DNA from: Octopus vulgaris
Lineage: Eukaryota
Length of the DNA stretch: 64,000 bases
Direction of reading: 5' to 3'
Assembly: GCA_951406725.2 (NCBI GenBank)
Contig: OX597819.1
Location: 122,388,001-122,452,000 of the forward strand
Part shown: in pieces, positions 5,481 through 51,052 of the stretch
Position numbering within the stretch: the first letter of the stretch is position 1
How the letters are laid out: each line of letters starts with the position of its first letter
Program-made: the position numbers and the translations under genes
The notes under the pieces: model-generated
Databases searched by the model: none
What the model was told of the DNA's origin: nothing
The model's input: the letters and a program-made list of their open reading frames with translations, nothing else

Positions 5481-5727
5481 ATGATAGGCATACGTGGTTA
5501 AATAAATAAATAAATAAATGAGAGAACAGACAAGATTGCTAGCAATCAACAACAATAGCAGAACAATAAACTATCAAATATTCCAATGCATTAATATAGA
5601 CTGTAGCTTTGTAAACTTGTTAATAATACATTCTACTATAGCCCAAGGCTCTAGTAGAAGACACTTGCCCATGGTGCCACGCAGTGGAACTGAACCTAGA
5701 ACAATTTAGTTGGTAAGCAAGCTACTT

Positions 5728-6647
5728 TATTTCAAAATTTTGCCATAAAGGCATGACACAGAGTAGCTTGTGGGCTGGACAAAAAACATTGATGAGATGA
5801 ATAATGAAAAAGGATGATGTTGATGGGAGAAGACAAAAAACGCCCGCCGAATTTTTGCTTCTCTAATACATTATTCTTTTTTTTATACAGGAAAAAAAAA
5901 ACGAGGTATTAAACCTCTTACTTCAGTTACAATTAAAAGACCATTACAAATTGAGGCGCTGATCCTCTTACATACAATAAACATTCAGGCACTAAAGCCT
6001 CTTTATCCTTCCTCCCTGACCAGGCTGTATGCCTTCCGTAGGCAATACTCCAGCTCCAGGTTGTGGCCCCAGAAGTCGAACCTAAACTGGTCGTTCGGGA
6101 AGGAGTCAATCACCCTGAACATATCAACTTCCGATCTGACCTCCGTAGTCATCTGCGGAGGCAAATCCGGGTCTTCAGTCCAGGGCATGAGCTCCTACCT
6201 CCGGCACCTCTAGCTTCCTTAAGAAGCTCTGTATTGCTCTTCCCTTATGAAAGAAGATAACAAAATCATCTCTCGTTGCTCTGGGAGGGGCCACAGTTTC
6301 CTCTGTCGGTGGCACACTTCTCACCGACAAAGTTTCAGGTCATGCCGGTAATGTCCCGTTCTTTTTCTTTTTTCTTTTTCTCCCCTTTGCTATGGGAGGG
6401 TGTGGTACCTCCGCTTTATTCGGAGGATCTTCCTCCCCTCCTGCTGCTTTAGGGTCGTTCGGTGGGCAACCATTGTTGACCACCTTCTTTTTTTCTTTCC
6501 TTTTTTCGAAGAGATCTCCACCTCCTCGACTGCCTCCATCTCTCCCTCCAATGGGGGAGCGGGGGCGCTACTTTTATTAACTGCTCCAGGACCTTACCTT
6601 GGTCATGGGAACAGTTTTTCTTAATGTGGCCCGGTTCCAGGCACAAA
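5728..6647 (-). mobile_element. Element F: RT-less non-LTR retroelement (gag-like ORF end plus 3' UTR) inserted in a SINE-A head
   Basis: Partial zinc knuckle LCLEPGHIKKNC; ORF end ..AYSLVREEG* at 6003; 14-bp TSD taagcaMgctactt (5714-5727, 6648-6661); 3' UTR homologous to 18900-19121. Confidence 0.75.
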
Positions 6648-7217
6648 TAAGCACGCTACTTACCACACAGCCACTCCTGCGCCTATGTCTAAATATTTTT
6701 CTTCAGACTAAGTATATCTAGAACTACATTTTCCAATGTGTCCTTCCTGTTTAAGAACGTTAAAATATGGCTTGGATGAGATTTGATTGCTATTTCTAGC
6801 AGATTGTGTGACAACGTAAAAGCCTCTCTCATTGGCTTGCGCCAGAAGGTGAACGTAGTTTTTGTGAAAACTGTGTATTCTATTTGTAATGATATAATCA
6901 CAAGTTGAATAATGTGTTATCTCAGCAACCACCAACGACTATGTTGCTAATGGATGATTAATGGACATATCATTCACAATCGCTAAAAGTGGAGTGACTG
7001 CAAACGATGCATCCATTAGTCATTCGAATTCTGGTGTTATAATTGTCATCGTTTATCAGCCCTTTAATCTATCATACAGCAGAGGAAAAGCTGTTGCCTC
7101 CAGCTCTTTTGGACGGTAAATATATGTAAATTTCCTCTCATTAATATATTAAACCCGTTTCATTAAAGCGTGGGTGAGCGACCCTTTACATACGGGAGAA
7201 ATTTAAGTCCCTATTAA

Positions 7218-7776
7218 AGGCGCAGGAGTTGCTGTGCTGCAAGACGTTTGCTCCCTAACGACTGCTTCTGGGTTCAATCCCGCTACGTGACATCTTGGGC
7301 AAGTGTCTTTTATTATAGCCTCGGACCGGCCAAAACCTTTTGTAAGTGGATTTGATTGATGGAAACTGAAAGAAGCCCCACGTATATGTGTATATATGTA
7401 TTTGTTTGTGTGCGTGTGTGTGTATGTGTGTATGTATGCGTGTGTGTGTGTTTATGTGCTGGTGTATGTGTGTATGTGCGATCGTGCGTGCGTGCGTGTG
7501 TGTGTTTGTGTGTATATCTTTGTGTCCGTGTTTGTCCGCTACCACCGCTTGACAATCGGTGTTGATGTGGTTACAGCCCTGTAACTTAACGGTTCAACAA
7601 AAGAGACCAATAGACTAAGTACCAGGCTTAAAAGACAATAACAACAACAGCAACAACCACAACAACAACAAAATTACTGGGGTCGATTCGTTCGACTAAA
7701 ATTTCTTCAAGCTGGTACCACAGCATGGCCACAGTCTAATGACTGATACAAGTAAAAGAATAAGAGAATAAAAGAA
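7218..7776 (+). mobile_element. SINE-A, diverged
   Basis: Homology to other SINE-A copies. Confidence 0.85.
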
Positions 7777-8129
7777 TGAAGAAAGATTCAAACTTGAAAC
7801 TACGCATTGGCAAAGTTCCTAAAAACCGATGGGAAACGATAATCTAAGTAGGAAACCTTTGAACGTCTAAATTCAAAGAGATAAAATTTTACTTGGAACA
7901 AACGTGCTGACACACTTTTCTATGCATTTAAAATTCACTCTGTGTTGAAAAGACCACCGCCTCTGCATTTAAATATCATATTGTCTATTGGTAGCAACGA
8001 ATACATCCTCAAATGAGTATTTTTTAAAATTACAAACACTGGTCGACTTTGAGTGGGATAATTCTGTCATGTTTTTAAGATCAGGAATGGAACTGTGTTG
8101 TTAAAGCGAGACGTTGTATGACCGAATTG

Positions 8130-8900
8130 AAGAATTGAAATAAAAATAGAAAATGGAATAATCCAAATAGAAAGGCAAAATGGAAGAGTCAAAATACATA
8201 CAGAAAGTGGAAGAATTTAAACATCATAGAGGAAATGGTAGAATCCAGATACAAAGAGAAAATGGAAGAATTTACGGAAAAAAGAGAAAATAGAGGAATG
8301 CAAATATAAAAAGAAAATTAAAGGATGAATGTGCAAAGACAAAATGGAAAAATACAATGGAAAAATGGGTTAACTCAAAGAAAAAAAAAAACATGGAAGG
8401 TTCTAAAAGAAAAGAGAAAATGGAAGAATCCAAACAAAAAGAGAAAATGGAAGAATCCAAATAAAAAATCTGGTAGAACTCCAAAACGAAGAAAGTTATT
8501 TGTAGAATTCATATACAAAGAGAAAATGGAATAATCTAAATATAATGAGAAAAATTAAGAATCCACTTGCAATTTGGAAATGGAATAATCTAAATATAAG
8601 ATAAAATTGAAGAATCGAAAAATAGGAGAAAATATAGAAGAATCCTTTAGATATATAGAAAGGAGAAGGCAGAAAATCTGAAAAGAAAACGGAAGATTCC
8701 AAATACAAAAATTAAATTTTAGAATCCAATTGCAAAAAAGAAAGAAATCAAAATGAAAGAATCGAGATACAAAGAAAAGTGGAAGAATCCAACTATAAAC
8801 AGAAAAGGGAAGAATCGTTATAGATATAGACAAATGGGAGAATCCAAATGTAGAGAATAGAAGAAAACCAAGTGAACGAAAGAATTGGAAGAATCCCGAT
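8130..8900. repeat. Degenerate purine-rich minisatellite, about 28-30 bp (aaaatggaagaatccaaa...)
   Basis: Recurrent ggaagaatcca motif at roughly regular spacing. Confidence 0.75.
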
Positions 8901-9303
8901 ACAATTAATTCGTATTTATTTCAATGCCTTGATCACAGTGGTGCGTTTAGATTTTGAATAGACGTGTGGATTTGACTAATTCTAAAGATTTGAATGAATT
9001 TGTGTTAAAATTGACAGACATTCAATTTCTATCAAACGAATCCTACTTTGCATGTTGTTGGAGACGAGTATCTTCAAAATATGTTTTATATTGTGGTATT
9101 TATTCTGGCTGCGTAGATTCTGAGTTCAAATTTTGTCCGGGTCATCTTTGCTTTCCCTCCTTACAGAGTCCGTAAAATACTGTACATGTCTAATTCTGGG
9201 TTCAGTTTTAATTGACTAACCTCACCCAAACCCACCGCAAGATTGCTGGTTGTGTGCCCAAATTAGAAACCATTATTTCTATTTTAATTAATGTAGAATT
9301 TTA

Positions 9304-9890
9304 GGGCGGTGAGCTGGCAGAAACGTTAGCACGCCGGGCGAAATGCTTAGTGGTAGTTTGTCTGTCTTTATATTCTGAGTTCAAATTCCGCCGAGGTCGA
9401 CTTTGCCTTTCATCCTTTCGGGGTCGATAAGTTAAGTACCAGTTACGCACTGGCGTCGATGTAATCGACTTGATCCGTTTGTCTGTCCTTGTTTCTCTTC
9501 TCTGTGTTTAGCCCCTTGTGGGTAGTAAAGAAATAGGCATTTCGTCTGCCGTTACGTTCTGAGTTCAAATTCCACCGCGGTCGGCTTTACATTTCATGCA
9601 TTCGGGGTCGATAAATTCAGTACCAGTTACGCACTGGGGTCGATATAATCGACTTAATCCCTTTGTCTGTCCTTGTTTGTCTTCTCTGTGTTTAGCCCCT
9701 TGTGAGTAGTAAAGAAATAGGTATTTCGTCTGCCGCTACGTTCTGAGTTCAAATTCCGCCGAGATCGACTTTGCCTTTTTATCCTTTCGGGGTCGATAAA
9801 TTAAGTACCAGTTGCGTACTGGGGTCGAACTAATCGACTGGCCTCCTCCCCCCAAATTTCGGGCCTTGTCCCTAGAGTAGAAAAGGATAT
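9304..9890 (+). mobile_element. SINE-B head-to-tail array (3 units; last has type-2 tail)
   Basis: Internal junctions gtaaagaaata|ggYatttcgtctgcc. Confidence 0.9.
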
Positions 9891-10129
9891 GCATTGCACG
9901 CGCATATAGGGCGTGTTGTTAAAGAATTCCTTTTCCATAAAGTTCCACTCTCAAAACACTGTCCAGCCGAGATTATGTTAGAGGACGCTTGCTACAAGTA
10001 CCAGGCAATGGGATCGAACACAGAACCATTTGATTTGATTTTTTGCAGAAATGTCTTGTTCAAGAATCAGTATATGAGATACGATAATGCTTTTCTTTTT
10101 TAAGCTAAGGTGGAAGAGATAAGTTTTGT

Positions 10130-10420
10130 TGTTTGTTTGTTTGGTCCTTCTCGAGCTATGTCTGGCTCATAAGGGCCGGTTTCCCGGTTTCCTGGACGAG
10201 ACGCCGTACCGTCCCAGGTGAATTGCAAGATGCAGGAGGAAAGAGTGAGAGAAAGTTGTGGCAAAACAGTCAGCAGAAGTTCGCAATTACCTTCAGCCGG
10301 AGCCGCGTGGAGCTTAGGTGTTTCGCGCATAAACACACACATCGCCCGGTCTAAGATTCGAACCCGCGATCCCTCGACCGCGAATCCGCTGCTCTAACCA
10401 CCAGGCCATGTGCCTCCACA
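10130..10420 (-). mobile_element. SINE-D (tail type 2)
   Basis: Homologous to 11604-11906. Confidence 0.85.
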
Positions 10421-10954
10421 AGTTCATATTTAAACTAGGAAAATTTTAATTTGCAATCAAGTATTTTTGAAAATAATTTTGATGTTTGTGTGTCTTCTAA
10501 CAACCTTACCAATTTTTTGCACAGAGCCAGGATTTTTTATCGAGCCCCGAATGAATGGAGGCTAATGCAGTTTCGCACCTCTTCTTGAAAAATGCATTAA
10601 AACATTTTTTTCGCATTCCTACGTTTTAGATGTCGGAGATTACGAATATGCAAAAAAAAAAAAACCCACAAAAATTTAATTTCGACCCCGCCAATTAAAA
10701 TTCTTTTGTTTACTTTAAAGAGATCGTAGCGAATTGACGACCATATGCAAATCGAAATTAAATACAGACAAAAAACATTAAAGTGAAAAGAATTTGCGTT
10801 TTACTTGTGTTTGCCTTAAATAATCGTAAATAATAATTTAATGTAAATCAAATATACACCATTTTATGAGAAACAATGTTTAATAATTAATGTTATAAAA
10901 GTTTAATAAGGGACTCAAATTTCACCCCCTTCCCCAATTTTAAATTTTGAACTT

Positions 10955-11380
10955 TGATCTTTTCGGTTTGAACGGCAGTTTTTAACATAATTTCTAGGTA
11001 ATTAAAAAAATTTTAAACTTCGTATACTGGGAGTATGTGTTTATAAAACATCTTTTTCTCTTGGCTTTATTGAGAAAATTCTATAGTTTGTAAGATATTT
11101 GTTGTTTTTTTCTTCAATTCTGCAATTTCAACCAATCAGTGACGTCTATTGAGTTAAAAAGCATTCTGTGCAGTATGAATATGTCCCTCGTTTAAGAAAC
11201 AGATTGGGTTTATTTACATTTGTGAAGAAAAAAGCGATACCCTTCCCCCACCCCTAACCCTAATTAACCCTAACCCTAAAAGAGATTGAAATGCAATAGA
11301 TCGATACTAGGGTCATAATTATGGGTGACAATTTCATATGACACCGCTAGAAAAAACTGCGGTTCAAACCGAAAAGATCA
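10955..11380. mobile_element. MITE-E with internal (CCCTAA)n
   Basis: TIR tgatcttttcggtttgaacggcag; TSD ttgaactt at 10947-10954 and 11381-11388. Confidence 0.92.
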
Positions 11381-11603
11381 TTGAACTTTTTCATTCAATC
11401 ATCTATTTATCCCTTCCGTTTGTTCATAAAATATATTTGTCAACTAAATGTGACGGTCCTATAGAAGACGTTGTTACTGTTGTTTTTAGCCCCAGGAAGA
11501 CATTCATATCTATCTCTTTGTATACATATCTATATGATTATTGAATTTAAAATTTTGAAAACCTGCTTTCTAGAATATTCGGAATCTCCGTCATCTAAAA
11601 CAT

Positions 11604-11906
11604 TGTTTGTTCCTTCTCGAGCGACGCCTGGCTCATAAGGGCCGGTTTCCCGGTTTCCTTGGCGTATAGGTTCCCCACCTGGATGGGACGCCGGTCCGTC
11701 GCAGGTGAGCTGCAAGATGCAGGAGGAAAGGGTGAGAGAAAGTTGTGGCGAAAGAGTCAGCAGAAGTTCGCCATTACCTTCTGCCGGAGCCGCGTGGAGC
11801 TTAGGTGTTTCGCTCATAAACACACACATCGCCCGGTCTGAGATTCGAATCCGCGATCCCTCGACCGCGAGTCCGCTGCTCTCGCCACTAGACTATGTGC
11901 CTCCAC
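11604..11906 (-). mobile_element. SINE-D (tail type 2)
   Basis: 12-bp TSD catctaaaacat. Confidence 0.9.
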
Positions 11907-12066
11907 CATCTAAAACATAGGGGGGAAAAAAATTCGAAAAAGTTCCAACTTTTTTTTCTTTTTGCATATTCGTAATATTTCCGACATCTAAAACGTAGGA
12001 ATCCGAAACATTTTTTTCAAAAAAATGCATTTCTCAAGGAGAGGTGCGAAACTGTATTAGCTCCAG

Positions 12067-12865
12067 TGAACGAAAGACAAGGTTGACCACGGCAGGATTT
12101 GAACTCAGAACATAAAGCTGTAAGAAACACTGTTATGCATTTTGTCCGACTCGCTTATCATTCTAGTAATTCGCTGCCTTTTCGCATTTTCTTATATCGT
12201 TTCTCATAAAGGTAATAAAGCCTAAACTTTAGGGGTTAAGTGTTAATCGATTACATCGACGCAAGTAGTTGACTGGTACCTATTTTATCGACCCCAAAGG
12301 GATGACAAAGTCGACCGCGGTGGTATTTGAACTCAGAATGCAAAGAGGGAATAAATACCTACGCATTTCGCCCAGCGTGCTAACGTTTCTGCCAGCTCGC
12401 TGACTTATGCAAAGACAGAATGCTTATTTCTTTACTACCCACAAGGGGCTAAACACCGAAGGGACAAACAAGGACAGGCAAACGGATTAAGTCGATCATA
12501 TCGACCCCAGTGCGTAAGTGGTACTTATTTAATCGACCCCGAAAGGATGAAAGGCAAAGTCGACCTCGGCGGAATTTGAACTCAGAACGCAGCAGCGGAC
12601 GAAATACCACAAAGCATTTCGTCCGGCGTGCTAACATTTCTGCCAGCTCGCCGCCTTAAGACGGAATAAATACCATTAAGCTTTTTGTCCGGTGTGGTAA
12701 CATGTCTTCTAATATCAGTTTCAGATTTTGGCACATGGCCTGCAATTTCGTGGGAGTGAGCGAATCGATTACATCGACCCCCCCAGTTCTCTTGTGGTAC
12801 TTAATTTATCGACCCCGAAAGGGGGAAAGGCAAAGTCGACCTCGGCGGAATTTGAACTCAGAACC
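12067..12865 (-). mobile_element. Cluster of SINE-B copies and fragments
   Basis: Repeated gtcgacctcggcggaatttgaactcagaac motif. Confidence 0.8.
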
Positions 12866-13117
12866 CTTCTAATATCAAACACATAAAATATATCGTTGAT
12901 CAGTAATGAATTAGAGAAATGTCAACAACTTTCTAATAGATGGTTTGTGATTGTTGTTGATGGGTAGCTTCTATGAAAGTAATGCGTCAGGATACTCTGA
13001 TTAATTCAAAGGAACTGCAATTAAATATTTATAGAGGACAGAATACATAACAAGGCAATGATTAATTGAGAAAAGTGATGAATTACTAATGTAAATTGGA
13101 CGTATGTTTAAAATATA

Positions 13118-13843
13118 TTATTTCCTACTCTAGGTATAAAGCCCGAAATTTTAGGAAAGGGGCCAGTCAATTATATCGATCCCAGTACGCAACTGGTACT
13201 TAATTTATCGACCCCGAAAAGATGAAAGGCGGAATTTGAACTCAGAACGTAGCAGCAGACGAAATACCAGACGAAATACCTATTTCTTTACTACTCACAA
13301 GGGGCTAAACACAGAGGGGACTAACAAGGACAGACAAACGGATTAAGTCAATTATATCGACCCCAGTGTGTAACTGGTACTTAATCTATCGACCCCGAAA
13401 AGATGAAAGGCAAAGTCGACCTCGGCGGAATTTGAACTCAGAACGTAACGGTAGACGAAATACCTATTTCTTTATTATCCACAAGGGACTAAACAGAGAG
13501 TGGACTAACGAGAGACACAGGTTTTAAGTCGATTACATCGACCCCAGTGCGTAACTGGTACTTAATTTATCGAACCAGAAAGGATGAAAGGCAAAGTCGA
13601 CCTCGGCGGAATTTGAACTCACAAAGTAACGGCAAACGAAATACCTATTTCTTTACTACCCACGAGGGGCTAAACACAGAGAGGACAAACAAGGACAGAC
13701 AAAGGGATTAAGTCGATTATATCGTCCACAGTGCGTAACTGGTACATATTTAATCGACCCCGAAAGGATGAAAAGTAAAGTCGACCTCGGCGGAATTTGA
13801 ACTCAGAACGTAAAGTCAGATGAAATACCGATAAGCATTTCGC
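13118..13843 (-). mobile_element. SINE-B array (4 units; terminal unit has type-2 tail)
   Basis: Junctions gacgaaatacc|tatttctttacta. Confidence 0.9.
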
Positions 13844-13846
13844 AAA

Positions 13847-16219
13847 TTTTTTATTTCCCACAAGGGGAGAACAAAGAGAGGACAGTACAATCTGATATGG
13901 GGTCAGATTTATCGTATGAGTTAACAAAAAGATGAATTTAAAAATTTTACATAAATATGAATAGTTCGAATGATAACATATACAAGACAACAATACAGAA
14001 TCGAGTGGAGAGGCGGGATATGCTCGGACACCACGAGACCCCGTCTCAACACTGATGCTTTGGGTTCATCCTGCGTTGTATTCATTCGGTTCCATCCATA
14101 CGCAACATTCGTGCGACATTCTTCCATCGATCTTGGAACATTTTCGCAGACAGGCATTTTTTATCTAACCCTATTTTCCTTCTTAGGTGGAAGGTGAAGA
14201 AATTCACCAAGCCAGGGCCAGAGATGCGTCTTCCAAATCACCTCTTTCGCAATTGCTACAATGACGGGAAAGCAATTCTTACCTTCTTTCGGTAGGAAAT
14301 CCGGTGGGTCAGTTTTTACTATTGACTCAGTCGATAGCTGTACTCTTCCTGTACTTGACAACAGTTGTTTGGCATAAGTCCTTAGCTAATGCTAATCCCT
14401 CCATAGTGTCTCTAGCCTATGTCTGTGAGGAAATATGATTTTAATATTACAAGGCTTATGTCGTCTATTTGTATTATCATAATTCCTTCTGGAAGTTTAG
14501 CGGGATCTATTCGGTTTGAACGGCAGTTTTTTCTATCGGTGTCATATGAAATTGTCACCCATAATTATGACCCTAGTATCGATCTATTGCATTTCAATCT
14601 GTTTTAGGGTTAGGGTTAGAGTTAGGGTTAGTTAGGGTTAGGGTTAGGGGTGGGGGGAAGGGTATATTTTTTTCTTCAGAAATGTAAATAAGCCCAATCT
14701 GTTTCTTAAACGAGGGACATATCCATACGGCACAGAATGTTTTCACCTCAATAGACGTCATTGATTGGTTGAAATTGCAGAAATTGAAGAAAAAACCAAC
14801 AAATATCTTACAAACTATAGAATTTTCTCAATAAAGCCAAGAGAAAAATATGTTTTATAAACACATTCTACCAGTATACGAAGTTTAAAAGTGTTTAGTT
14901 ACGTGGAAATTATAAAAAAAAAACTGCCGGTCAAACCGAAAAGATCCGTTTAGTGTAATGTCCTTTGAAGATTTCTGCTGTAGGAATATTTTAAATTCTA
15001 GTTGTCAATTGTTCGTTCGTGGCATTTATTGCCACTAATAGTAACTTGTTTTGCCATATATTTTTTCCAGGACTGGAGGGATGATTTTTCTGGGCCGGAC
15101 GGAGGGGATATACGGGGGAGAGATCGGGGACTGGAGGATGGGGATTGGAGGGGTGAAATTTCAGGGCTGAGTGGGAGGGAGGGGAGGGGAGGTTATCAGG
15201 GTTGGAAGGAGGAGATATCGGTGTTTCTTTTGGTGAATAGTGGTGGGTTGGGGTAGTTTGAGTTTCGTGTGTGTGTCTGTTGAGGGAGCTTTTTTCTTGT
15301 TCGAGCTGGATGTTGAAGGGATGGGATTGGGGTTCTTCCTTTTGGTTAATTTCTTCCTTTTTATCGTAGACCATCCTTCTTCACTCCCAGCTAGTTGAGT
15401 GTTTTCATTGCTGGGAGCCTACTGGTCGGTCTTCTGCGTTCTTTTTTTGAGCCGTCTCCACCTTACGGGTAGGACAGTTTGCCCGAATGTGGCCTTTCTC
15501 TCTACATTTGAAGCACCGGGGTCTTCTCCCCTCCACCATTACCCGTAAGGTGGTTTCTTCTCCGAGGTGTATGTTCTCTGTGATCATTTTCAGGGTCTGA
15601 GGCGCTGCTTGGATAATGACCTCGAGGCCTTGCCCCTTCCAGTTCTGCTGGGGTATTTTTGAGGTCTCTTATATCGTTATTTCTATTATTCTCATTAGTA
15701 TGGCTGGGAATAGCCATGATACGTTCATTTCTGGCGGGATATCTTCTACCGTGATCATTGACGTGCGCCTGCCAAAGTATGTTGGCAGCAATACAAAATC
15801 CGTGGTTTTCAAAGGTTGTACCGAATGTATTTTCGCTTTCTCTTCACTTTTGAAATACACTACTAGCGTGGCAAAGCATTTGCCTCTGGTCAGGTATTCT
15901 ATGTTCTGCCAGATCGGCTGTAGGCATTTTTCTATAGCTTCTTTTGGTGCTTTGTCTAGATTATTTTCTTTTACAACAAGAGTTTTAAATACGGCTATTT
16001 TTTTTTTTGCCGCTTCTTCTATAATTTCACTCGGGAGGGTGGCTTTTACGTCGTACCCCTCCTTTGAAAACATGGTTTGGTGCTGCATTAGTACATTTTT
16101 GTCAACAGATAATTTTTCTTTTTTTCAGTCCAGCCGCAGCTGCAAAATTAATCTTTTTTGCCGTCCCTACAAATTTTTCTGCCGTCGGCATACTTAATAT
16201 TTCACAGTTTATTTTACAT
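13847..16219 (-). mobile_element. L1/Tx1-like non-autonomous element: decayed ORF1 joined to ORF2 C-terminus and 3' UTR, no EN or RT
   Basis: ATG 16191 MPTAEKF..NFAAAAG frameshifts into ORF 15669-16088; CCHC knuckle CFKCREKGHIRANC; Pro-rich segment; then IVAIAKEVIWKT and FHLRRKI..FQDRWKNVARM, typical of L1/Tx1 ORF2 ends; A-rich tail. Confidence 0.75.
14503..14947. mobile_element. MITE-E with internal (TTAGGG)n
   Basis: TIRs; TSD gtttagcg/gtttagtg. Confidence 0.9.
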
Positions 16220-16758
16220 TTAAGTCGATTATATCGACCCCAGTGCGTAACTGGTGCTTATTTAATCGACCCCGAAAGGATAAAAAGGCAAAGTCGATCT
16301 CGGCGGAATTTGAACTCAGAACGTAAAGACAGACGAAATACCTATTTTTTTACTACCCAGAAGGGGCTAAACACAGAGAGAACAAACAAGGACAGACAAA
16401 CGGATTAAGTCGATTATATCGACCCCAGTGCGTAACTGGTACTTAATTTATCGACCCCGAAAGGACGAAAGGCAAAGTCGACCTCGGCGGAATTTGAACT
16501 CAGAACGTAGCGGCAGACGAAATACCTATTTCATTACTACCCAAAAGGAGCTAAACACAGAGGGGATAATCAAGGACAGACAAACGGATTAAGTCGATTA
16601 CATCGACCCCAGTGCGTAACTGGTACTTAATTTATCGACCCCGAAAGGATGAAAGGCAAAGTCGACCTCGGCGGAATTTGAACTCAGAACATAACGGCAG
16701 ACGAAATACGGCTACGCATTTCGCCCGGCGTGCTAACGTTTCTGCCAGGTCGGCGACT
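16220..16758 (-). mobile_element. SINE-B array (head plus 3 bodies) running directly into the ORF1 element
   Basis: Same unit junctions; last body ends at atcgacttaa. Confidence 0.88.
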
Positions 16759-16979
16759 TTATTTAAAATATATTGAAAGACATCTGCGTCAAGTTATCAC
16801 ATCAAATTTCCTGTTTTTCGTCAATTATCTCATCTTTCTTGGAAAATCTTGGATGTGAGCGAAAAGGCAACGCGAAAATATGCCTGTCAGTGTTTTTAAC
16901 TTTAGGTTGTTATCCATAAAATTTATCAATAGTATCTTTACTGTCGCTGATGGATCTAATGTAACTCCTGAAAATAATA

Positions 16980-17530
16980 AAGCTTATTTCTTTATTGAGA
17001 AAATACTTTTGTCTTGATTGAGGTTAACGTTATAGAATTTTACCATCTCGAGAAATTGCTTTAACTTATTATCATAATATAATTGACTTACAGCAACAAT
17101 TGTTATATTGCCCAGATAAGTGAAAACTCCTTTAACATCTTTCTTTCATATAATCTCATCTATTACAAGTTCAAAGAATGCAGCTCCACTGATTTCTCCA
17201 AATGGTATATGATTAAACCAGCAAAGTGAATTATATGCTTCAAATACAGTGGTAGGTCATTCTGACACTATAAGTGCTACTTGATGATAAGCACAACCCG
17301 CTACTAATGTGTTTTATACTTCATTCAGAGCAATATTCAATACCATCTCATTAATTTTTCGTAATGGATAAGCGTCCAATTCATTATAAAATTTTTATTG
17401 TTTGATTATAATCAATCATGATTCTCTTGTGTTCTTCCTTGTTTTATTACCGGCACTTGTTCTCGCCATGGAAACTGACATTCTTCAATTATATCTACAT
17501 TAAGAAGTTGCTGAATCTCAGATTAATAAA
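16980..17530 (-). pseudogene. Decayed Ty3/Gypsy reverse transcriptase
   Basis: Manual translation across stops and frameshifts: EIQQLLNVDIIEECQFPWREQV, ELDAYPLRKINEMV, AYHQV, IPFG, FTYLGNITI (decayed YLDD/N box), in Gypsy RT order. Confidence 0.8.
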
Positions 17531-18042
17531 TTATATCTGGGACCTCGAGCTATTAGGTTAATTTTACGACGATTGGTTTAAAAATTGTTCGATAAATTTC
17601 CAAATAGCAAAATGAATTAAAAATTTCACTGAAGAAAATACAAACACAAATAAATTTTCATGCGATTTGCTAGAAAAAAGCAACGAATTATTCCTCAAAT
17701 AACATGTTACTGCCTGAAATAAAGTAATCTCGCATCGAATAAAGCAGTTGTATCTAAAACTAAAAAGGAAAGATGGTCATTGTTAAACGACCTTTGATTG
17801 AATATCCACTCGGTTGGGACTTGTTTAAAGCTGAACGACGACGTCAACAATCTACGCTGTTTTTAACAAATCATAGCAAGGCTGATGTCAGGGATTTTAG
17901 AAGGGAAACTTTGAAATTGGAATGAAGATAGAATAAGCACGAGGAAATTAACGAAACATTTACCGAGTGTGCTCGATGATAGTGAATACGCGTAACAGAA
18001 ACATATTCACTAGTAATAATAACTGTCATTCAAGTAAAATAC

Positions 18043-18460
18043 GGACCTTTTCGGTTTGAACGGCAGTCTTTTCTAGCGGTGTCATATGAAATTGTCACCC
18101 ATAATTATGACCCTAGTATCGATCTATTGCATTTCAATCTGTTTTAGGGTTAGGGTTAGGGGTGGGGGTAAGGGTATCTTTTTTTCTTCACAAATGTAAA
18201 TAAACCCAATCTGTTTCTTAAACGAGGGACATATTCATACGGCACAGAATGTTTTTTTACTTCAATGGATGTCACTGATTGGCTGAAATTGCAGAAATTG
18301 AAGAAAAAAAACAACAAATATCTTACAAACTATAGAATTTTCTCAATAAAGTCAAGAGAAAAAGATGTTTTATAAACACATTCTACCAGTATACGAAGTT
18401 TAAAATTTTTTAATTACCTAGAAATTATGTTAAAAACTGCCGTTCAAACCGAAAAGAGCT
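18043..18460. mobile_element. MITE-E with internal (TTAGGG)n
   Basis: TIRs; TSD taaaatac/caaaatac. Confidence 0.88.
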
Positions 18461-18670
18461 CAAAATACTCGTGGAGTCTGTAGAGTAGGGGTTCTTAACT
18501 GGTTTATTATCGTGGCTGACTTAGATTTACACAATGTTTTGATGGGGCACTCGGGCATAAAGACATATTGTGACCTAACAGAAAAGAAGATAAGTAATTG
18601 AATAAACATATAGGGACAAAAAGTAAGACCTGATACTACTCTAATATGTGGTAAATTAATTATCAATATA

Positions 18671-19269
18671 AGCGCAGGAGTGGCTGTGTGGTAAGAAGCT
18701 TTTCGCTTTTTGCCGAAAAGTCCCGACCTAGCACCATCGAGGTGCTTGAGTGTGGCATTGAGTCTGGTCGGGTGACGGCGGGGCGGAAAAATTAAGAGGC
18801 TTCGTGCCTCGTATTGTGTATTAACATTAATGTAGGAGGTTTAATGCCTCAGTCTGTTGTTTTGTTTTGAGTTTATTGTTTGTAAGAAGCTCAGAGCCTC
18901 AATTGAGAACGAACTACGGATCTAAAGTAAGAGGTTTAATACCTCGTATTGTTTTTACTATGTAAAAAAAAAAGAATAATGTTTTAGAGAAGCAAAAATT
19001 CGGCGGGCGTTTTATGTCTTCTCCCATCAATATCATCCCTTTTCATCATTCATCTCATCAATGTTTCTGTCCAGCCCGCAAGCTACTCTGTGTTATGCCC
19101 TTAAGGCAAAATTTTGAAATAAAGTAGCTTGCTTACCAACCACCCAACCGCGTGGTTCCGGGTTCAGTCCCACTGCGTGGAACCTTGAGCAAGTGTCTTC
19201 TACTATAGTCTCAGATCAACCAAAACTTTGTGAGTGGATTTGGTAGGCGGAAACTGAAAGAAGCCCGTC

Positions 19270-19319
<50 letters not shown>

Positions 19320-50522: not shown

Positions 50523-50662
50523 CTACCCCACAGCTCAGTGGCCACCTGCTATACTACGTTCATTGGGGTTGTGGATTTAAAACTAGTTAAAGGATCTTTT
50601 CTCACATTTGAAAATAAGTATGTGACACAGCATATTAAAATTTGTTCAAAAAATTTACATAT

Positions 50663-50795
50663 AGGCGCAGGAGTGGCTGTGTGGTAAGTAGCTTGTTTAC
50701 TAACCACATGGTTCCGGGTTCAGTCCCCCTGCGTGGCATATTGGGCAAGTGTCTTCTGCTATAGCTCCGGGCCGACCAATGAAAGAAGCCTATCG

Positions 50796-50839
<44 letters not shown>

Positions 50840-51052
50840 TGTGTGTTTGTGTGTCTGTGTTTGTCCCCCTAGCATTGCTTGACAACCGATGCTGGTGTGC
50901 TTATGTCCCCATTACTTAGCGGTTCGGCAAAACAAACCGATAGAATAAGTACTGGGCTTACAAAAAGAATAAGTCCCGGGGTCGAGTTGCTCGATTAAAG
51001 GCGGTGCTCCAGCATGGCCGCAGTCAAATTACTGAAACAAGTAAAAGAGTAT
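50663..51052 (+). mobile_element. SINE-A
   Basis: Family homology. Confidence 0.9.

Follow-up and report, generated by a model that had tools for sequence, protein, structure and literature searches.

The subject of this study is element F, a repeat found twice in a stretch of 64,000 nucleotides from Octopus vulgaris (GenBank assembly GCA_951406725.2, contig OX597819.1, forward-strand positions 122,388,001 to 122,452,000; hereafter the window). Both copies lie in the head of a short interspersed nuclear element (SINE), designated SINE-A, and the results presented here suggest that they were moved there by the enzymes of a long interspersed nuclear element (LINE). Each copy has the 3' end GGCAAAATTTTGAAATA, followed directly by AAGTAGCTTGCTTACC of the SINE-A head, and the 17-mer spanning this tail has exact matches in the window only at the two F junctions. 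The window contains 14 SINE-A heads, and the only interrupted ones are the two that hold F. Alignment revealed that copies 1 and 2 overlap only in their 3' ~420 bp and are ~91% alike across the last ~190 bp. The target-site duplication (TSD) of copy 1 is 14 bp and that of copy 2 is 9 bp, each with one mismatch. The 5' end of copy 1 falls within a CX2CX4HX4C zinc knuckle, from which broken and frameshifted frames lead to the stop codon. A reading made from the letters of the window alone (the sequence-only reading) had placed both insertions at the same nucleotide, had noted that the copies differ in 5' truncation and TSD length, and had described the longer copy as running from a zinc knuckle through a stop codon into the 3' untranslated region (UTR) without the second LINE open reading frame (ORF2). 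Each of these points was upheld, the first by junction reading and alignment. Both window copies are old, broken and dead members of the F family (Table 1).

Table 1. Features of the two element F insertions, in window coordinates.
Feature	Position	Strand	Remark
SINE-A head upstream of F copy 1 (GGCGCAGGAGTGGCTGTGTGGT)	6662..6683	-	Reads ...GGAGTGGCTGTGTGGT
5' TSD copy of F copy 1	6648..6661	-	AAGTAGCGTGCTTA
Element F copy 1, 920 bp	5728..6647	-	5'-truncated; frameshifted ORF1 (knuckle to stop) and 3' UTR
CCHC zinc-knuckle codons (C-LEPGH-IKKNC)	6611..6643	-	Truncated 5' end of copy 1
Final open segment of F ORF in copy 1	6003..6194	-	Stop codon 6003-6005
3' UTR of copy 1	5728..6002	-	Holds GCAAGCTACT (5756-5771 region), terminal hairpin and tail (5728-5754)
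3' TSD copy of F copy 1	5714..5727	-	AAGTAGCTTGCTTA; start of remaining SINE-A body
Remaining SINE-A 3' of copy 1	5632..5727	-	~95 bp recognisable; lower bound by eye
SINE-A head upstream of F copy 2	18672..18692	+	
5' TSD copy of F copy 2	18693..18701	+	AAGAAGCTT
Element F copy 2, 420 bp	18702..19121	+	ORF end and 3' UTR
Terminal hairpin (TGCC...GGCA) and tail of copy 2	19095..19121	+	AAAATTTTGAAATA
3' TSD copy of F copy 2	19122..19130	+	AAGTAGCTT
SINE-A body after copy 2	19122..19274	+	First 9 bases are the 3' TSD copy; then TA/TG microsatellite

The 17-mer of the F tail has 66 exact matches in the 2.8 Gb of genome searched, versus one for a reversed control. All 66 loci were retrieved, each with 2.8 kb of upstream sequence, and were sorted, partly by eye, into 52 tails of F/G type (G is a shorter repeat described below) and 14 others that are SINE-B-like or unclassified. 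SINE-A follows from the same nucleotide, starting AAGTAGC, in 31 of the 52 F/G-type tails; this number includes one SINE fragment (L103) and two loci with indels that were missed by the Hamming test and added by eye. Because 31 of 52 tails join the SINE at one nucleotide, the shared landing nucleotide of F copies is not due to chance, and the sampled 3' flanks agree with what the two window copies had indicated. A separate sample ranked by BLAST score placed 11 of 28 tails at the SINE-A site. Intact SINE-A heads are themselves abundant, with 27,166 exact 31-mers of the GCTTACC variant and 28,705 of the GCTAACC variant.

The upstream SINE head was located in 12 of the 31 SINE-linked copies; it was not found in the other 19 within 2.8 kb and with up to three errors allowed. 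Head-to-tail distances in the 12 resolved copies range from 98 to 2309 bp, with no two equal, and their TSDs are 4, 5, 9, 11, 11, 12, 14, 14, 15, 16, 16 and 16 bp long, the first base always being the same A. A fixed 3' end, variable 5' truncation and flanking TSDs of 4-16 bp that start from the same base are the signature of a retroelement lacking long terminal repeats (a non-LTR element) inserted by target-primed reverse transcription. The different truncation points and TSDs of the 12 copies also support the independence of the insertion events, as had been proposed from the window pair, and additional examples were seen. A single chimeric SINE-F master, or one locus multiplied by segmental duplication, could instead lie behind all SINE-linked copies. 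The 3' junction is indeed identical in all copies, and young copies of two families described below, LINE-A and F2, nearly all have the GCTAACC variant of the landing pad on both sides. However, all 12 head-resolved F copies differ in 5' junction position and TSD length, flanks beyond the SINE vary from locus to locus, off-site copies have TSDs of their own, and a 5'-truncated composite would be without a SINE head, yet the head is present. A single master or duplicated locus was rejected on the differing 5' junctions and is scarcely credible.

One locus among those retrieved, L111 (G000:C23:11804354-11807353), has an odd short junction in which the terminal 17-20 bases of the tail stand directly after an antisense SINE-A head. 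At ~460 bp upstream of this junction, 258 bp match the F 3' UTR at 89% identity.

The longest F copies (L031, L052 and L063) have a length of 2.0-2.06 kb, counted from the SINE head to the tail, and contain a single broken ORF; L033 reaches 2.3 kb owing to an internal insert. A 5' UTR of ~460 bp precedes an ORF that begins MAK(N/K)TALDWEIVPP and continues with two conserved blocks, a CCHC knuckle and ~200 further residues, followed by a 3' UTR of ~270-300 bp. In full-length relatives the 5' UTR, which belongs to the element itself, spans 460-690 bp and contains many runs of T. Frameshifts are present in all of the old F copies, and the median pairwise identity of their tails is 85.5% (43 copies, 497 pairs). 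A genome search with the F ORF returned 8781 first-look candidates, many with open frames of 420-473 residues. Eight of the ten candidates retrieved belong to a younger family, F2, whose tail is ...CTTTATGGCAAATGTTTTGAAATA; each of the eight occupies the SINE-A site. The seven F2 copies with both ends resolved are 2220-2329 bp long, and their open frames span the same 420-473 residues. Contigs from 4 of 24 sequencing runs, of a guessed or unknown kind, overlie F2 and give no indicator of transcription or of a start site.

Two further families share the landing nucleotide. A survey of junctions to AAGTAGCTTGCTTACC in which the upstream context is not a SINE head gave 248 matches, and the 100 that were listed led to family H, an ORF1-only element of ~2.07 kb with the tail ...TGACAAATTTATGAAATA. 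Element G is a ~333 bp repeat (L095:2468-2800) with 320 candidates in the genome. It has only the last ~35 bases in common with F, and all five sampled copies are at the SINE-A site. In the alignment, many G relatives stop 12 bases sooner, suggesting the existence of tail subfamilies. At least 8 of the 100 listed junctions consist of pure (AT)n immediately before AAGTAGCTTGCTTACC. These are SINE-A copies that begin at the landing site after a TA repeat, possibly the result of SINE-A insertion into the same site of another SINE-A or of 5' truncation.

The protein encoded by these elements resembles the product of a LINE ORF1. The F2 ORF is 28% identical over 196 residues to ORF1 of LINE-A (BLASTP, E=7e-23), and it also matches ORF1 of L157, another LINE with a zf-RVT domain (BLASTP, E=3e-19). 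The knuckle of the longer copies scored 16.7-20.2 bits against Pfam zf-CCHC, under the 20.8 cut-off. Pfam at E<=10 returned only zinc knuckles for eight ORF1 sequences, and the RRM-like fold of ORF1 was not seen among them. An Atlas search with ORF1 gave CCHC and ZCCHC3-RNA-binding-domain clusters with scores of 0.89-0.93, which serve as leads only. ORF2, with its reverse transcriptase (RT) and endonuclease, was not found inside full-length F and F2 copies by tblastn with LINE ORF2. The zinc knuckle could in principle be the C-terminus of an ORF2, an origin that was rejected because the knuckle follows an ORF1-type N-terminal region whose ATG is ~460-690 bp from the 5' end and because RT homology is absent. 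Classification of F as a SINE was likewise rejected, since F is 2 kb long and encodes protein, and ARAGORN found no tRNA-like, SINE-type head in the four F-bearing loci scanned (L066, L071, L072 and L112). F is best read as an ORF1-only non-autonomous non-LTR retrotransposon of ~2.0 kb, or "half-LINE". The likeness in layout to HAL1 (half-L1) that the sequence-only reading had seen in a truncated copy extends to full length, as 2.0-2.3 kb copies are without RT and their ORF is homologous to a LINE ORF1.

A search for an autonomous partner, which the sequence-only reading had called for, revealed a LINE lineage with RT at the same landing site. L173 and L174 are older, 5'-truncated LINE copies at the SINE-A site with the ORF2 C-terminus just upstream of their tails. 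Searching with this C-terminal peptide returned 14,068 candidates, many with open frames of 1140-1150 residues. All 14 candidates retrieved belong to one family, LINE-A, and all are at the landing sequence before AAGTAGCT.... LINE-A is ~5.4 kb long (5433-5445 bp in nine untruncated copies with both ends resolved), and the median pairwise identity of its copies is 99.0%. Its ORF1 has ~487 residues with a CCHC knuckle (Pfam zf-CCHC, 4.3e-5), and its ORF2 of 1140-1150 residues contains RVT_1 (1.9e-27), Exo_endo_phos (4.9e-12) and zf-RVT (1.4e-8) domains. The closest solved structure to ORF2 is human L1 ORF2p (1.2e-66), and a public protein search with ORF2 returned 34 unnamed relatives and no clade name. 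The designation "Tx1-type" is used here as a label only, taken from the layout, the target behavior and a published table of 13 recently active L1-Tx1 families in O. vulgaris (PMC13282606, Table 1).

The 3' ends of LINE-A are nearly uniform. In 13 of the 14 copies the end reads ...GCCTAAATGGCAAATTATATGAAATA, after which come AAGTAGCTTGCTAACC and the SINE body. The remaining copy (L178; G000:C2:95671500-95679499) has the same 16-bp pad followed by a stacked F2, so that the locus reads, head to tail, half-LINE tail, pad, full-length LINE, pad and F2. The 30 best zf-RVT LINE loci belong to other families, with tails ending ...AATAAAGAAATA or similar, and were rejected as partners of F on the grounds that they are not at the SINE site. 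One of these loci, L157 (G000:C2:73047000-73056999), belongs with its neighbors to a direct tandem array in which a LINE with ORF1 and an ORF2 of 1140 residues is present in at least five units. The units are spaced ~5.4-5.7 kb apart, and each tail is joined straight onto the next 5' end.

The sequence-only reading had called F sequence-specific. A strong preference for one site is evident, but the specificity is not absolute, as 21 of the 52 F copies lie elsewhere, at sites starting A-W-G-T-A-K. Among 28 off-target flanks (these 21 and seven from the BLAST sample), position +1 is A in all 28, +2 is A or T in 26, +3 is G in 24, +4 is T in 26, +5 is A in 23 and +6 is G or T in 25; positions beyond are near background. 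Several off-site targets are (ATGT)n microsatellites. Eight of the 21 off-site copies have a recognizable TSD of 7-15 bp that starts at +1, right after GAAATA, and the hexamer is therefore derived from the target and not from the element. F prefers Y/AWGTAK, where the slash marks the insertion point, and the SINE-A head (GGT/AAGTAG) is the favored instance. By a rough, uncomputed estimate, there are at least ten times as many AWGTAK hexamers as SINE heads. That 60% of the copies are nonetheless at the SINE indicates recognition beyond the hexamer.

The same distribution could arise from weak specificity for any AWGTAK combined with survival, harmless insertions into SINEs being kept and others being removed by selection. 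The off-target copies at AWGTAK sites (21 of 52) and the extreme number of SINE-A heads are compatible with such filtering. However, all 14 LINE-A copies, still 99% identical to each other, already occupy the landing sequence, and purging would hardly yield an occupancy of 60-100% in view of the roughly estimated excess of AWGTAK and a mostly non-coding genome. Selective survival is quite improbable as the source of the preference.

The motif just upstream of the insertion resembles the A-box consensus by eye, and both A-box- and B-box-like motifs can be made out by eye in SINE-A. ARAGORN found no tRNA in the 64-kb window, and Rfam gave no tRNA match at E<=1 on an intact SINE-A (window 50640-50900). 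The sequence-only reading had proposed that F parasitizes a SINE promoter. This is not supported, since the A-box-like motif is parted by the insertion from the remainder of the SINE and the full-length relatives bring their own 5' UTRs. Ty3 and the Dictyostelium TRE elements have RNA polymerase III-linked targeting near tRNA genes. A comparable tethering to the RNA polymerase III machinery on the SINE A and B boxes would place insertions close to the observed site, which lies right after the A-box-like motif. The insertion position is, however, exact to the nucleotide, SINE-A is not recognized as a tRNA by ARAGORN or Rfam, and the off-target sites share a sequence motif and no RNA polymerase III gene. 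ARAGORN detected no tRNAs in 25 of 25 loci scanned, the 21 non-SINE F loci included, although a split tRNA would escape detection. Tethering is thus highly improbable, and no sign that tRNA genes are also targeted was found at the 21 non-SINE loci, with the same proviso for split genes.

The link between F and LINE-A lies in the last bases of the elements. The 3' UTRs of the two are unrelated apart from the last 30-35 bases. All families have in common a stem of 4 bp (TGCC...GGCA) with a 5-base loop, followed by AAAWTTWTGAAATA. These ~30 terminal bases, hairpin included, recur in the half-LINEs, in the autonomous LINE and in element G, as well as in a SINE-B-like subfamily. Of the cells compared in 24 tails, 88.5% are paired, and three of the four pairs have changed on both sides (for example TGTC/GACA and GGCT/AGCC), a covariation score reached by none of 500 shuffles. 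This covariation is modest evidence that the passengers share a 3' end that would be recognized by the RT of a partner. The SINE-B-like subfamily (L055, L059, L076, L077, L083, L099 and L108-L110) has the identical 17-nt tail, GGCAAAATTTTGAAATA. The parallel with SINE-B drawn by the sequence-only reading holds for this tail and fails for the target, which is different and ATA/ATT-rich.

The window also contains, at 13844-14385 on the minus strand, a 3' fragment of a different zf-RVT LINE (ORF2 C-terminus) with the tail ...CCCCTTGTGGGAAATAAAAAATTT, and the SINE-B copies adjoining it have the tail ...CCCCTCGTGGGTAGTAAAGAAATA. This fragment and the adjoining SINE-B are probably the LINE/SINE pair that the sequence-only reading had named the "SINE-B system".

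The interpretation favored here, with a probability of roughly 0.78, is that F was mobilized in trans by a LINE of L1/Tx1 type with an endonuclease predicted to nick the SINE-A head. On the bottom strand this endonuclease would nick at the boundary of GGT and AAGTAG; its nick in the top strand would lie ~16 bp downstream. Reverse transcription would be primed on the tail, with the LINE RT presumably recognizing the common hairpin and tail on F RNA, as their conservation suggests. Resection of the upstream overhang before 5' joining may shorten the 5' TSD copy, giving TSDs of less than 16 bp. The SINE would serve as an abundant landing pad, not as a promoter.

Target choice might instead depend on RNA-DNA pairing and not on the endonuclease. 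The F 3' UTR contains GCAAGCTACT, the reverse complement of the target AGTAGCTTGC, and by annealing to the displaced top strand next to the nick this segment would position the RNA. In F copies and some related tails the motif is ~42 nt short of the 3' end; the autonomous LINE and its older relatives have it as AAGCTACTT, ~80 nt before the end, and it is absent from the tail of LINE-B, which does not target the site, and from the SINE-B-like tails. However, family G lacks the motif, yet five of five sampled copies are at the site. F2 and H hold only degenerate versions, the position of the motif differs between the LINE and the half-LINEs, and off-target sites have only AWGTAK in common, not the longer complement. 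Guidance by the element RNA is therefore considered unlikely, and choice of the site by the endonuclease of a LINE is preferred.

Several observations weigh against mobilization of F by this LINE. Nicking, RNA binding and trans-mobilization are predictions made from sequence, and membership of LINE-A in the Tx1 clade is putative. The hairpin has a stem of just 4 bp, and the tails in the comparison are relatives of each other. No autonomous copy with the exact tail of F was found, and ORF2 coding is absent beside the tail at all 66 of the 17-mer loci. The LINE-A tail differs from that of F at several positions, and upstream of approximately -35 the 3' UTR is unrelated. The ORF1 of F and F2 is only 28% identical to that of LINE-A, and F is therefore not a recent deletion derivative of LINE-A. 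With 40% of its copies off-site, F has a looser specificity than the young LINE. Insertions of the SINE-B-like subfamily, whose tail is identical, are in ATA/ATT-rich sequence instead of the SINE-A site. The shared tail alone is thus no predictor of the target, and there must be, or have been, another enzyme source bearing this tail. Given this mismatch in target, and the lack of an autonomous copy with the exact F tail, the enzyme that moved F was probably an older relative of today's LINE.

The sequences that flank young insertions suggest that the landing pad is not inherited from the SINE alone. Young LINE-A and F2 copies (L117-L123, L126 and L180-L191) have the GCTAACC pad variant on the 3' side in 19 of 20 cases, versus about half of intact heads. 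The independent LINE loci L183 and L188 have a common unusual 5' pad, AAGTAGCTTGTCTAACC (TTGTCTAACC), and the hybrid 5' pad of L122 joins letters of the target (AAGTAGG) to letters of element type (TAACC). These patterns suggest a start of full-length RNAs within the pad, part of which would be restored from the element; some of the 5' pad may be passed on with the element RNA. A tentative proposal, given somewhat less than even odds, is that one SINE nucleotide acts as a self-renewing pad for a guild composed of the LINE, at least three ORF1-only lineages that differ in age (F, F2 and H) and the 333-bp element, which use one tail hairpin. Their full-length RNAs would carry part of the 16-bp pad at the 5' end, and each insertion would rebuild the site, making head-to-tail stacks possible. 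Instead of transient products of deletion, the ORF1-only elements would then be parasites of a site-specific LINE that persist and evolve over long periods.

Target-specific LINEs of the Tx1 clade are known. As described in Kojima 2015 (PMC4494074), these include Tx1 in the Tx1D transposon, Keno in U2 small nuclear RNA (snRNA) genes, Kibi and Koshi in microsatellites, and Tx1-Mar, with its passenger SINEU, in Mariner-N4_AMi. As in the cases described there, the octopus system has a LINE lineage of the apurinic/apyrimidinic endonuclease (APE) type that prefers one place inside another repeat, and non-autonomous passengers with the same target preference, taken as a sign of trans-mobilization. 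The octopus ORF2 with endonuclease, RT and zf-RVT, and the ORF1 with a CCHC knuckle, are also like those of the Tx1 clade as presented in that source. Unlike those cases, the octopus target is the head of a SINE, hit at one nucleotide, and the passengers are the 2-kb ORF1-coding elements F, F2 and H and the 333-bp element, not snRNA-headed SINEs.

HAL1 of mammals is described in PMC5753468 as a non-autonomous L1 derivative that encodes only ORF1p and arose several times. F resembles HAL1, so described, in its layout of 5' UTR, ORF1 and 3' UTR without ORF2, in its probable reliance on a related autonomous LINE, and in the presence of several independent or long-lived ORF1-only lineages (F, F2 and H). 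Unlike HAL1 as portrayed there, F is not a mammalian L1, is without a poly(A) tail and ends in a hairpin and GAAATA (...TTTTGAAATA), and it has a preferred target precise to the nucleotide. The 28% identity of its ORF1 to that of the extant LINE also points to a long-separate lineage and not to a fresh deletion product. Assignment of F to HAL1 proper was rejected, as F resides in a SINE-rich octopus genome, its 3' end has no A tail and the likeness is in layout only.

Stringent-type LINE/SINE partners, such as UnaL2 and UnaSINE1 of the eel, share a 3' stem-loop that is recognized by the LINE RT. Like this pair, the octopus LINE and its passengers have the last ~30 bases and a compensated short hairpin in common. 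Unlike UnaSINE1, the octopus passengers encode protein, and recognition of the hairpin is suggested by its conservation. The principle that a passenger shares the 3' end of its partner LINE is set out in the introduction of PMC4494074.

Target preference is not mentioned in the searched papers on octopus repeats. The available text of PMC13282606 contains no occurrence of 'target', 'nested' or 'insertion site', and that of PMC9115989 contains none of 'Tx1' or 'target site'. A literature search, supplements excluded, turned up no description of a LINE or half-LINE that targets the head of a SINE, or of target preference among octopus LINEs. Site-specific LINEs of Tx1 type have been described before, as have HAL1 elements with ORF1 only, and the octopus case is a variant of these known kinds.

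For genome annotation, one mechanism explains many interrupted SINE-A copies in the octopus genome, and several 2-kb "unknown" repeats can be classified as half-LINEs. The usual dependence is reversed, in that LINEs obtain harmless landing pads, tens of thousands of them, from the SINE. The system also separates questions that bear on LINEs and their passengers: how an APE-type LINE endonuclease gains near single-site specificity, what a passenger RNA needs in order to be copied, which here is apparently a very short hairpin tail, and whether its own ORF1 protein helps a non-autonomous element to persist for tens of millions of years.

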